A DNA stretch of 64,000 bases from Klebsormidium nitens (Eukaryota; Plantae; Klebsormidiophyceae). The DNA is taken from NCBI GenBank assembly GCA_000708835.1, contig DF237182.1, positions 1 through 64,000 of the forward strand, read 5' to 3'. Of this stretch, positions 1 to 6,056 are shown piece by piece. The notes beneath the pieces are model-generated. The model saw nothing but the letters and a program-made list of their open reading frames with translations. It made no database searches and was not told the DNA's origin. Both the position numbers and the translations under genes were made by a program. Each line of letters begins with the position of its first letter. Position 1 is the first letter of the stretch.

Positions 1-232
1 TCAAGGGTTGCGCCATGCATTAAATGCGAATAATGCAAAGGGGCCAAAATGCATGGACCCCAATAAACGAAGGGTCCAACATGAATAGGCTATGGCCGTG
101 CATAGGCTATGAGCCTGTGGCGGCGGCGCGATACGCGCACGCGCGCGCTCAAGACACGCTATGGCAAGGAGCCAATCTGGCGTGACACATGTGAAAATTA
201 TCTTCGAATACCTACTATATGATAGCATAACT

Positions 233-1072
233 ATGGACGCCCTGCGTCAGTTGTTTACTGACAACATCCGCACTCAGGCATCTATGGACCAATACGTAAG
301 GGGCATTGCCCTTATCTACCAGTTGTGCCATGATCGGCAACTTCCTAACACGCTCGATTTGACCTTCCTTCGATTAGACGCACAAGCCTTTACTCAATTA
401 GTGCAAGGTCGATATGAAAATCCGGGATCAAGAAGGACCCGTTTGGCCCCCTTTCTGGCTGCTTGTAAAAAGCTCGGATACTCAGATGCTTATCAAATAT
501 ATTTTAAACCGTTTCAGAAGGATAATCAGCCGTTGAAAGAACTTCGTGAAAAGCAAGCCGCTGAAATCGAGCATGATTCAATAAAAATGCGGGAGATGTC
601 ACGTGAAGACATTGATCACCTGGGTAGTAAGCTGGCCCGAAAGGTTGGATCGTTGACTTGCATAGGTGCAGACGACCTCGATAGAAAGAATGTGAAGACT
701 GTCATGATACATTTGCTTGTTGAATGGCATATTTTGATCAAGAAACACGTCAGACGAGGTGTAAAGCTATATCACTTACCTATTATCCTGAAAAAGAATG
801 GAGGTGCGTGCGTTGATGATACCAATGATGCACTAATCCAGATTAGCCGATCGAAGCAAATGTTTTATTTACGCAATCAAGAAGAGATACATGAGCTTCC
901 AACGATGTTTTGCAAATACCTTGCTAGAACATTGGAGCTTATCCCACGAGGATATTTCATAACGTCGGTGTCGGATCCGCTGACACCAATGTCAGGGAGT
1001 AATTATAGTAACTTTTGTGCAAAGCTTCTCTTTAACGAAAAGTTACTTAATCTTGATCACGCATATAACTGA
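233..1072 (+). CDS. Tyrosine-recombinase-like protein, apparently lacking the catalytic C-terminus; paralog of the next ORF (ORF track start 161, likely true ATG 233)
   Basis: Colinear similarity to ORF 1143-2243: TQASMDQYVRGIALIY vs TDSTVNVYLRQIRNIY; RLAPFLAACKKLGYSDAYQIY vs YAAPFSILAQKWDFNDAKNVY; YLARTLELIPRGYFI vs VILRSFNLFPRHYLV. It ends at FNEKLLNLDHAYN, where the neighbour has FGKNLSCTLLRH...GH...Y. Confidence 0.6.
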   Translation: MDALRQLFTDNIRTQASMDQYVRGIALIYQLCHDRQLPNTLDLTFLRLDAQAFTQLVQGRYENPGSRRTRLAPFLAACKKLGYSDAYQIYFKPFQKDNQPLKELREKQAAEIEHDSIKMREMSREDIDHLGSKLARKVGSLTCIGADDLDRKNVKTVMIHLLVEWHILIKKHVRRGVKLYHLPIILKKNGGACVDDTNDALIQISRSKQMFYLRNQEEIHELPTMFCKYLARTLELIPRGYFITSVSDPLTPMSGSNYSNFCAKLLFNEKLLNLDHAYN

Positions 1073-1142
1073 GATTCGTTTTTCAGCCGAAACATAATTT
1101 CTACTGATAGCTGAAGGAAGCCGGCTGCTAGCTTCAAGCAGA

Positions 1143-2959: not shown

Positions 2960-5812
2960 ATGATGGAGCTGATAGACGTTTTTGAAAAGTACGCACAGGA
3001 AGGTCTCTACGCTATACCAGCGAAGGCTTCGCCGGGGCCCGATGGAAATAAAAAGGTACATGGGACTATGCCGCATGCAAACGGAGAGGCAGCTATACGG
3101 CCAGGCTCCGATTGGAAGGCTTCAAAGGGAAGAATCATAGAACACATACATGAAAAACAATTCAATTTCATTGCAATCAAAACTGGCTCTATTTCAGATG
3201 TATATGTCTTGGATGTTGATGTCAAAGACAAAGAGGAAGAAGATATATTGGCTGGAATGCCTTTCTGGAAGAGTATGATTGTCAAACATGGCGAGCCTGA
3301 CACTTTGAAAGCAACGACGCCCAGTGGCGGTTTTCATTATTATTTCTCATTTTCGGGCATACTCAAAGATGGACTTAGGTCGGGAAAGAACTTTGTGGGT
3401 TTGGACGTCGATGGTCAGGTCTATGGGATCGATGGTCGCGGTGAAGGAGGAATTGCATTCGCTCCACCAAGCTCGCTTGGTGCTGGTAAGAAATACAATT
3501 GGAATGTCATGCCAGAAAGAACCAATATTACAACCGCTCCAGCATGGGTGATTGATCTGATAAACAATACTGCCAGACGAGTTGGTCGTAACGGAAAAAT
3601 TATAAACACTCAAGATGCATTTCAAACAGAGCAGAGCTCAAAACTCAATAAACATGACGAGTCGCTTCTGCATTCTTCCTTTGCAGACGAAGGAGACTTG
3701 AACGAAGATTCACTAAACGCGCGAGACGCAAAGGCATATGAGGATAGGATTGCGGATGCAATGATGAAGTTGCTGAAAAATAGTGGCTTGGACGAAAATG
3801 TACGCTTCTCCGGTAAGGTTTCCCCTCGTGGCCCAATTGGTTCACTATATTCCTTCGTCTGCAAAGGCCCTCGAATGTGCATTCACGGCCATCGCCACAA
3901 TGGATCCAACAACTTCACATTGATCAAAAGAGGATGGGTGGTACTTTATCGATGCTTTGGATCCGAGTGTTCAGAGAAACAACTTGTAGAACTTGGAAGT
4001 CTCAGCCTCACAGACTCATTGCTGGATGCGAATCCTACAAAGTTGCATCCAACGTTTAACCATTCAGTGTTTTCATATAATTGCAAGATGTTATCCGAGA
4101 TTGAATATCAATGTTATGTGGATGTTATCAAGCGCAATATAATGCAACGCTATCGAGGGATGGCTGCTATTTTTAGTGCCATCTATGCCGTTGATGGACG
4201 GATTCTTGCCGAAGGAAAGAATTTCAGATATTGGAACGGCCGACGATGGCTATCAGACGGTTCTTTCCATGTGCAGTCAGTCTTCTCAAGCCACATCTCG
4301 CGGATCTTAAAATGGTACGAGAATCTTCGAGTGACGGCATTCAAGCACGAAATCTGGAAGCTTGCGAAGGAATCGAAAGAATGGGGATGCATACCAGAAG
4401 CTTCGGGATACGCCCTTCCAGGATGGGCAACCAAGCCACGGAGCGAGGAAGAAAAGAAAGCATGCCGCGAAGCGTGGGAGATAGTCTCGGCCACCTTACC
4501 ATTCCCTTCGAAGGGTGACTCTACATGTCAGCTTATAGATTTGACACGGGGCTCTGAAGTGCGTGTCTGTCTTGAACATGTTCTTGACTCTCTGCAAATT
4601 CAGGGAAACCTGGATGCTCTTATGGATTTTGCCAATCCGTACCTATTTGCATGTGCCAATGGAGCGCTGGAGACGACGACTGGACAGCTGCTTGCGCCCC
4701 ATCCTGCACACTTGTGCTCGCGAGCTTCGAAGGTAGCTTTCCGCGGAATGCCAAAAAGCGAATCCCGATTTGCTTCTTTTTTGCTAGTTTGCTTCAATAA
4801 CGATAGAGAGGTGCTTGATTGGTACCAGCTCTATCTTGGATACTGCATGACAGCCGACACGAGCGAACAAATCTTTCTAGTAAAACAAGGAGAGGGGAGC
4901 AACGGAAAAACACTCACAAAGATAGCATCCTTTGAGATCTTTGGATCTTATGCTGTCGTCATGGACAAGGATGTCATCATCGAAGCAGGTGGCAAGCAAT
5001 CTGCTGGTTCAGCCTCGTCCCACCTCATCGCATCAAAAGGGGCGAGGCTGGCAGAATCGGACGAGTCAAGCGAAAAGTCCGTCCTCAACGAAGCAACAAT
5101 CAAAGAGTTGTCTGGAGGCGGCTCCATCACAGCAAGAGAACTTCAAGGCAAGCAGGAGACCTTTTTGGTGACCCATAAGGCCATTCTGAATACCAATTAC
5201 AAGACCGTTATGGAGAACGCCTCGTTTAGTCTCGTACGTCGTATGGCCCTCCTTCCAATGATAGTGACTTTCAAGTCGGCCGAAAAAATGAATCCGCGGA
5301 AATCCAGAGAGAAGCCAAAAGATCCTACGTTAAAAGCTTACTTGAAGTCCGATGAAGGTCGAGAGGATGGACTTTCCTGGATCGCAGCGGGGGCAAAGCG
5401 CTACTTCGAGTTGAAACGAGCAAATCCTAGCGTCCTGGTTCTAGAGAAACGCCCGAAGGCTATGGAAGACGCCCTAAAGGCGTATGTCAACGACAACGAT
5501 ATTGGCAAACGATTCATTGAAGAATGCTGCGAGTTCGAAGAGTTGCAAGAAGGAGCACGTGCAAAGTGGCACTTGGCACTAGGCGAAAGGCTAGGGGATG
5601 CGTTTCGAGCTTGGATGAAGGAGGAGGAGATTTCTAGCTCCCTTTCTGCTCAAGCCCTAAAGAAACGTATTCTACTCTATGCTGATGGTGCAAATTATCG
5701 AGTCGAAGATGGTCGCTTCACAGACAGATATGTGCAAGATAGAGGTCAATTCAAAGGTCTCAGTGGAGTGCGGCTGAAACCTGAATGCATACAGGGTAAG
5801 GCACTTGGATGA
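2960..5812 (+). CDS. Bifunctional primase-polymerase (Prim-Pol) + Zn-binding domain + D5_N + SF3 (D5/P4-type) helicase fusion
   Basis: Prim-Pol motifs TGSISDVYVLDVD, TPSGGFHYYF, GIDGRGEGGIAFAPPS, YNW. Zn ligands CIHGHRH...YRCFGSEC. D5_N segments YWNGRRW and LFACANGALETTTGQL. Walker A GEGSNGKT, Walker B LAESDE, motif C ILNTNY, Arg finger RRMALLP. Confidence 0.92.
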   Translation: MMELIDVFEKYAQEGLYAIPAKASPGPDGNKKVHGTMPHANGEAAIRPGSDWKASKGRIIEHIHEKQFNFIAIKTGSISDVYVLDVDVKDKEEEDILAGMPFWKSMIVKHGEPDTLKATTPSGGFHYYFSFSGILKDGLRSGKNFVGLDVDGQVYGIDGRGEGGIAFAPPSSLGAGKKYNWNVMPERTNITTAPAWVIDLINNTARRVGRNGKIINTQDAFQTEQSSKLNKHDESLLHSSFADEGDLNEDSLNARDAKAYEDRIADAMMKLLKNSGLDENVRFSGKVSPRGPIGSLYSFVCKGPRMCIHGHRHNGSNNFTLIKRGWVVLYRCFGSECSEKQLVELGSLSLTDSLLDANPTKLHPTFNHSVFSYNCKMLSEIEYQCYVDVIKRNIMQRYRGMAAIFSAIYAVDGRILAEGKNFRYWNGRRWLSDGSFHVQSVFSSHISRILKWYENLRVTAFKHEIWKLAKESKEWGCIPEASGYALPGWATKPRSEEEKKACREAWEIVSATLPFPSKGDSTCQLIDLTRGSEVRVCLEHVLDSLQIQGNLDALMDFANPYLFACANGALETTTGQLLAPHPAHLCSRASKVAFRGMPKSESRFASFLLVCFNNDREVLDWYQLYLGYCMTADTSEQIFLVKQGEGSNGKTLTKIASFEIFGSYAVVMDKDVIIEAGGKQSAGSASSHLIASKGARLAESDESSEKSVLNEATIKELSGGGSITARELQGKQETFLVTHKAILNTNYKTVMENASFSLVRRMALLPMIVTFKSAEKMNPRKSREKPKDPTLKAYLKSDEGREDGLSWIAAGAKRYFELKRANPSVLVLEKRPKAMEDALKAYVNDNDIGKRFIEECCEFEELQEGARAKWHLALGERLGDAFRAWMKEEEISSSLSAQALKKRILLYADGANYRVEDGRFTDRYVQDRGQFKGLSGVRLKPECIQGKALG

Positions 5813-5927
5813 AGGAAGGAGGGCATGGTACAGACGACGGTGTTTGACGAATATTAGATGGCTCTTATGTTGCTATCCTTGCTTGTTCTACTGTTATGCA
5901 CATCTCTCATCATTGTGAATATCATCA

Positions 5928-6056
5928 CAGACCAGAAGTCCAAAAGACCCAAAATCCAGATCTTTTTCATTTCAGAACGTTAGATTAATCGGTTATGAGC
6001 AATTCTCTGTGAAATTAAAAAGATCTCGATTTTGGGTCTTTTGGACTTTTGGTCTG
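5928..6056. repeat. Long inverted repeat: 47-bp arms (44/47 matching) with a 35-nt spacer
   Basis: Left arm 5928-5974 cagaccagaagtccaaaagacccaaaatccagatctttttcatttca; the reverse complement of 6010-6056 is cagaccaaaagtccaaaagacccaaaatcgagatctttttaatttca (3 mismatches). Confidence 0.95.

Follow-up and report, generated by a model that had tools for sequence, protein, structure and literature searches.

Gene content of the block

The first 64,000 nucleotides of contig DF237182.1 of the alga Klebsormidium nitens (assembly GCA_000708835.1), hereafter the window, open with a compact block of four open reading frames (ORFs) and an inverted repeat which, judged from its sequence, behaves like the end module of a Polinton-like virus (PLV). 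As the first-pass annotation had described, the four ORFs share one orientation and have no introns; they are encoded on the + strand and measure 303, 366, 102 and 950 aa. ORF1 (161..1072 as the longest frame, 303 aa) is a truncated homologue of tyrosine recombinases, and its start is most likely at 233 (233..1072, 279 aa), since its homologues begin there and the ATG at 161 sits in a high-copy repeat. It is followed by ORF2 (1143..2243, 366 aa), an OLV11-like (PLV-type) tyrosine recombinase, by ORF3 (2259..2567, 102 aa as the longest frame), a small basic protein for which 80-aa homologues make a start at 2325 most likely (2325..2567, 80 aa), and by ORF4 (2960..5812, 950 aa), which combines a Prim-Pol domain, a Cys/His motif, D5_N and a superfamily 3 (SF3) helicase. 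The inverted repeat (5928..6056) consists of two 47-nt arms (5928-5974 and 6010-6056), 94% complementary and separated by a 35-nt spacer. The guanine-cytosine (GC) content of the block is 0.41-0.48, against 0.53-0.60 in the next kilobases, and no second copy of the module was found in the 64-kb window.

ORF2 has R210, K254, R325, H326, H351 and Y360, that is, the R-K-(H)xxR-H/W-Y residue set of an active tyrosine recombinase, and is predicted to be active; the first position of the HxxR box is Thr in ORF2 and Ser in the recombinase of the viral contig L003. Pfam gave no significant match for this protein. With its structure model (pLDDT, the predicted local distance difference test, of 69), a Foldseek search of the PDB ranked XerH and Cre first (probability up to 0.99, E-values of 0.005 or above), BFVD returned 12 matches at E <= 0.001, of which the named ones belong to giant viruses, and VIA-align produced middling Z-scores of 6-8 to Ndc10, Xer and Cre. 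Moreover, the ORF2 profile matched the L003 recombinase in HHalign (98.3%). Taken with the catalytic residues, the PDB, BFVD and L003 matches bear out the recombinase identity first proposed for ORF2. Its ESM Atlas neighbours are mostly Preplasmiviricota, and the relatives with a readable viral context, on contigs L002 and L003, adjoin a packaging ATPase gene (in L003, Pfam Pox_A32, E 8e-8); this context, these neighbours and the OLV11-like type of the recombinase uphold the suggested affinity to PLVs. Both contigs (L003 over 1-16978) are PLV-like, with an A32 ATPase, an OLV11-like recombinase, a fibre-like protein and a large replicase ORF. They probably carry capsid genes as well, the putative capsid of L003 being unconfirmed by Pfam or PDB search.

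The recombinase profile search yielded 781 matches, of which six reach E <= 1e-30; behind them comes a wide range of proteins of 300-330 aa. All six catalytic residues are kept in 14 of the 18 near-full-length module recombinases. A phylogeny of 62 rows, rooted at the midpoint, was built from a hand-chosen set (12 family members, P0104 and ORF1-type rows), the matches P0108-P0159 of 295-380 aa and the two proteins of the locus. Within the clade of the module recombinases, P0104, P0251 and P0252 represent a deeper-branching intact recombinase, near-identical on three contigs of 12-48 kb, which suggests a second, younger family.

ORF1 lacks the RH box, the second His and the catalytic Tyr. Its alignment with the intact recombinase P0108 (25% identity, E 2e-21) stops at the RH box of the latter, and in the tree the two cluster at 100/97 on a long branch apart from ORF2, to which ORF1 is related only weakly (21% identity, E 5e-7; HHalign 7.6%). 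The HHalign value and the tree placement rule out that ORF1 is a recent duplicate of ORF2. Given that 20 of its 27 homologues end at the same place just before the RH box, the other seven being shorter fragments, the truncation is a family trait; without the catalytic C-terminus, ORF1 is therefore not a second working recombinase. Where the first-pass annotation had seen a working recombinase pair, with ORF1 as a paralogous copy of ORF2, the sequences point instead to a second recombinase lineage, predicted to be catalytically inactive. The structure model of ORF1 is poor (pLDDT 45) and no result rests on it. A protelomerase-like role, a lead from rank 19 of the ESM Atlas search, conflicts with the absent Tyr. 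MrpR, the SPbeta repressor, has a recombinase fold without activity and provides an analogy for the putative regulatory role of ORF1. As far as our searches reach, a conserved dead recombinase is new, and we found no precedent for it in PLVs.

ORF3 has no Pfam family; it is conserved in the module family, with nine 80-aa homologues and one fusion to a recombinase. The assignment of ORF4 as a Prim-Pol/SF3 protein stands on several grounds, namely Pfam matches to Prim-Pol (residues 11-196, E 1.3e-14) and D5_N (E 1.2e-8), PHROG primases with E-values down to 9e-59, the C962R protein of African swine fever virus (ASFV; E 1e-14 over residues 558-791, the helicase part) and conserved DxD, Walker A (residue 644) and Walker B motifs. 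Phage helicases match its C-terminal part only, at <30% identity. A Cys/His motif lies near residues 307-337 and presumably resembles the PrimPol/UL52 zinc finger. The same motif is present in P0024, a full-length helicase homologue of 990 aa and 29% identity.

The inverted repeat after ORF4, also part of the initial description, is far beyond chance. Its fold as DNA has a z-score of -11.4, no shuffle out of 200 was equally stable, and the longest arm in 30 shuffles of a 1.2-kb stretch was 18 nt, versus the 47 observed. In the reads, the hairpin arm has additional depth and two loose ends that run into different flanks, which places further copies of the arm elsewhere. By eye, no target-site duplication was seen in the flanks. 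The repeat may serve as an origin, as a recombination site or as both. A stretch of 17 nt from the arm occurs in 23 viral contigs, which was attributed to chance, as none of these contigs carries module genes and no match exceeds 24 nt.

Copies of the module and the state of the window copy

Word-based searches recovered 15 relatives of ORF2, 17 of ORF4 and 10 of ORF1. The only named close relative is KFL_011090010 of K. nitens, whose gene model starts with a recombinase piece joined to the helicase, so the two genes adjoin there too; the K. nitens helicase is the nearest named relative of ORF4 (61% identity). Cluster look-ups added dozens more module copies on metagenome contigs, many of them broken, and the cluster memberships are lower bounds, since some clusters show 15 of 16 or 18 members. 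On contigs of equal size, the recombinase is accompanied by ORF1 in 16 of 23 cases and by the helicase in 13 of 21, while all three are present in eight; this linkage is inferred from equal contig sizes, short sizes may match by chance, and one of the eight three-gene contigs, at 4666 bp, is too small and lumps different sources. The identities of recombinase and helicase mostly track each other across copies. One sign of exchange comes from a 10,087-bp contig, where recombinase and helicase are 70% and 59% identical to the window and 49% and 81% to a 91,093-bp contig.

Scans of IMG/VR gave no match for the ORF4 N-terminus, ORF1, P0104 or the P0108 group, and P0024 found a single 25-residue match there. 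The metagenome scan gave one distant 1.7-kb contig, and two pattern scans of 185,579 prokaryotic genomes found no relative. We found no description of the Klebsormidium module in the literature within reach of our search, which lay outside subscription journals, Repbase and preprint supplements.

The stretch is contained in five sequencing runs, four of them from one sample. In run X1 the window copy is represented by difference-free contigs with depths of 25.9 (520-2022) and 19.7 (5608-7400), compared with 21.2 for the host from 12,957, so there is no sign of amplification, and the read-depth excess that had been put forward as a check is absent. The summed X1 depth across 601-13,200 is 24-147. 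Among the contigs placed over 1-18,000, 180 of 327 are under 90% alike; together with the summed depth, this means that older, diverged copies exist. Over ORF2 and ORF4 the summed depth is 2 to 7 times that of the host, which is not a copy number. The module thus belongs to a multi-copy family, whose diverged members occur both in the sample itself and across numerous metagenome contigs, whereas the notion of a recent insertion is contradicted by the diverged X1 contigs and by an LTR-like repeat (long terminal repeat) that has since landed upstream. Contigs at host-like depth join the module to its right neighbour, in agreement with a real chromosomal position. Among the read contigs, which drop rare forms, neither a junction indicating a circle nor an empty site was seen.

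Purifying selection, the other explanation offered for the unbroken frames, agrees with the data. Of 40 listed differences (2,769 more exist), 16 fall inside ORFs and 12 of these are synonymous, one of the other four being specific to run X5, and the catalytic residues are preserved in most recombinases, as described above. The long contigs of X5 differ by C>T (or G>A) only, as in a bisulfite-type library. This pattern rules out X5 as a second strain, and the run therefore provides no independent occurrence. In 5612-5922, among the 17 listed of 24 changes in X5, 0 of 10 CHG cytosines are changed versus 6 of 8 CG; the host flank is uncovered in X5 at 80% identity. Since silent transposons of K. 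nitens carry CHG/CHH methylation, as reported in PMC5890265, the unchanged CHG cytosines of this one contig make silencing likely, and the window copy is probably methylated, silenced and dormant.

Surroundings of the block

On the left, bases 1-187 belong to a high-copy repeat outside the module, at roughly 60-80 times the host depth (X1 summed depth of 1316-3652 at 118-152, where single-copy DNA has about 21); run X4 shows a loose end at 187. The repeat ends in CGTGACA at 187 and has an AATAAA about 120 bp upstream; judged from the end motif, it is probably an LTR end. Inserted 45 bp upstream of ORF1, this LTR-like repeat hides the left side of the element.

The first-pass annotation placed the block beside a host region of spliced genes. 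The block does not directly adjoin host genes, its right neighbour being a spliced, multi-exon KDZ transposase gene with SWIM-type fingers (6415..11251, - strand), recognised from Pfam (KDZ, E 3e-5; SWIM, E 0.007; both below the curated cut-off). By the depth profile this gene is multi-copy from 6443, with several diverged copies in the same sample, repeated DNA goes on to about 12,950, and single-copy host DNA starts near 12,957. Between module and KDZ gene, about 380 bp are single-copy DNA in X1 (6060-6417), and the difference-free X1 contig 5608-7400 bridges helicase, hairpin and KDZ end. The neighbour is probably a separate transposon. Three 27-nt direct repeats (12597-12696) lie near its right end, and a literature search combining KDZ and Klebsormidium found no paper.

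Five probes drawn from two PLV-like contigs matched no capsid or A32 ATPase gene anywhere in the window; neither a double jelly-roll major capsid gene (L003 probes) nor a minor capsid gene was seen, a weak test for genes as divergent as these. Right of the block, the window holds no further long ORF with low GC at third codon positions. Elsewhere it contains host exons for a lipid-transfer-like protein, a Clp protease subunit and a UBA-domain protein (21263-21721, 24322-24915 and 43922-44758) and a tandem array of about six 33-bp units (57621-57819).

Origin and possible function of the module

The bacterial satellites P4 and the phage-inducible chromosomal islands (PICIs) are built from an integrase, a primase-helicase and an origin. 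Their Prim-Pol/D5_N/SF3 domains are like those of the block, as the PHROG matches indicate, which is an analogy and not membership; the ORF2 recombinase differs in that no phage record matched it. Cryptons are, like the block, eukaryotic DNA elements with a tyrosine recombinase, but to our knowledge they have no primase-helicase and use a different recombinase family, and no Crypton-type Pfam family was matched in the block proteins. The closest likeness is to the end module of PLVs such as AHEV_PLV2, CBEV_PLV1 and Gezel-14T, described in PMC11296320 as comprising a tyrosine recombinase, a primase-helicase and an inverted repeat, the latter proposed as origin and recombination site; that source, in its treatment of AHEV_PLV2 and CBEV_PLV1, considers the end module possibly mobile. 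The block differs by its extra truncated recombinase and small ORF, by a repeat that is a local 47-bp hairpin and by the lack of a capsid link among the genes read here. Algal PLVs encoding tyrosine recombinases (Guillardia theta, cryptophyte elements with AEP-S3H fusions, i.e., archaeo-eukaryotic primase joined to SF3 helicase) share with the block the OLV11-like recombinase family, the primase-SF3 fusion, intron-less genes, a GC content below that of the flank and several diverged copies per genome (PMC4642659, PMC12220804, PMC10120064). As presented there, what defines them is a gene set for major capsid, minor capsid and ATPase, of which nothing was seen in the window, and the recombinase of the block, at about 24% identity, falls in a distinct clade. 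Transpovirons and mobile AEP-SF3 genes, according to the preprint 10.64898/2026.10.13.758929, likewise have a replication(-integration) module and no morphogenesis module; they reside in giant-virus genomes, the copies in Bodo saltans virus (BsV) without flanking repeats, whereas the block has a nuclear location and a recombinase. PMC10288648 and PMC6431247 served as general background only.

On balance, we lean towards the block being the replication-integration end module of an endogenous PLV whose genes for capsid and packaging would sit beyond the left edge of the window, the second of two options raised at the outset and the best fit to the order recombinase, primase-helicase, inverted repeat. 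The primase-helicase lies between the recombinase and the repeat, as in a PLV end module, and both the OLV11-like recombinase and a primase-helicase replicase (Prim-Pol, D5_N and SF3) are PLV features, the pairing of recombinase and AEP-SF3 being common among PLVs in the accounts of PMC4642659, PMC12220804 and the above preprint. In addition, Tables S1, S4 and S5 of PMC10120064 record seven PgVV-group capsid loci in K. nitens, a similar order to the 2- to 7-fold summed depth. Of the 15-30 kb with terminal inverted repeats that characterise PLVs, only one end is inside the window. Several observations weigh against this interpretation: the analysis found no capsid gene linked to the module family, and 0 of 7 K. 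nitens capsid contigs equal the 13,723-bp helicase contig in size; typical PLV terminal repeats are far longer than the hairpin, for which the window contains no partner; IMG/VR has no close relative of ORF1, ORF2 or ORF4, the best long matches reaching 24-29% identity; a 100/100 branch of the 62-row tree separates the module recombinases as a long-branched clade of their own; and two full ORF1 copies, 90% alike, share one 14,958-bp contig, tight for two whole PLVs.

Some of these observations lend credit to an autonomous, capsid-less element of about 6 kb that would excise and replicate, descend from a PLV end module and either spread in the algal genome or ride giant-virus infections like a transpoviron, which we regard as a real but less likely possibility. 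It would account for dispersed copies with a constant gene set found together on many contigs (again inferred from equal sizes), for the long-lived clade, for the lack of an IMG/VR member and for the two ORF1 copies on one 15-kb contig, and autonomous modules, in which recombinases are linked with AEP/PolA replicases, have been proposed in the preprint 10.64898/2026.10.13.758929. However, neither a left end, an empty site or a circle joint among the read contigs nor a depth excess was detected, the gene co-occurrence fits a PLV arm equally well, and PLV capsid genes are present in the genus. It seems unlikely that the KDZ transposon carries the module as cargo, or is fused with it, and that the two travel together by DDE transposition as a unit of at least 13 kb. 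In favour of this, all of 1-12,950 is repeated DNA, up to the border with single-copy DNA, one contig bridges the two parts, and PMC11244446 describes recombinase-rich repeats in Amoebidium with a flanking Plavaka transposase; yet the spacer is single-copy in X1 and unbridged by the listed diverged contigs (diverged spacers may fall under the 80% cut-off), no inverted repeat joins both ends, and the GC content differs between the parts. It is quite unlikely that the block is a piece of an endogenous giant virus (Nucleocytoviricota), even though OLV11-like recombinases and accessory primase-helicases can occur in such viruses, giant viruses are the best named BFVD matches of ORF2, and K. nitens has several giant-virus inserts (PMC5294986). 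No giant-virus core gene was recognised beside the block within the window, the inserts of that study are viral-gene-dominated contigs mostly without a host junction, the D5 column of its table is blank for Klebsormidium, and the compact order, hairpin included, is what a small element would show. Contamination or misassembly is highly improbable: the runs with good coverage of the block come from one sample, but host-depth contigs bridge module and neighbour, there are many broken copies, and a homologue occurs in a public K. nitens assembly and in none of the prokaryotic genomes scanned.

For the PLV end module that we favour, ORF2 would act at sites close to the end of the element and, by way of a phosphotyrosine intermediate, insert or release a circular form. 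Opening the inverted repeat would fall to ORF4, its SF3 ring unwinding the DNA and its Prim-Pol domain priming or copying it. ORF1, keeping the DNA-binding part and having no nucleophile, may by analogy serve as a repressor or directionality factor on the sites of ORF2. It is conceivable, though we hold it only tentatively, that PLV-derived excision, self-replication from a hairpin origin and control by a dead recombinase combine in a capsid-less nuclear element, a counterpart of the bacterial satellites and a free-living PLV end module.

The core layout is already known. If the block is a PLV arm, it would supply the replication and integration genes of a PLV lineage of streptophyte algae, with the addition of a conserved dead-recombinase partner as a testable control on excision. 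If complete copies without capsid genes exist, they would be a direct example of a recombinase and AEP-SF3 module so far only proposed, and would represent a new group of self-replicating eukaryotic transposons.

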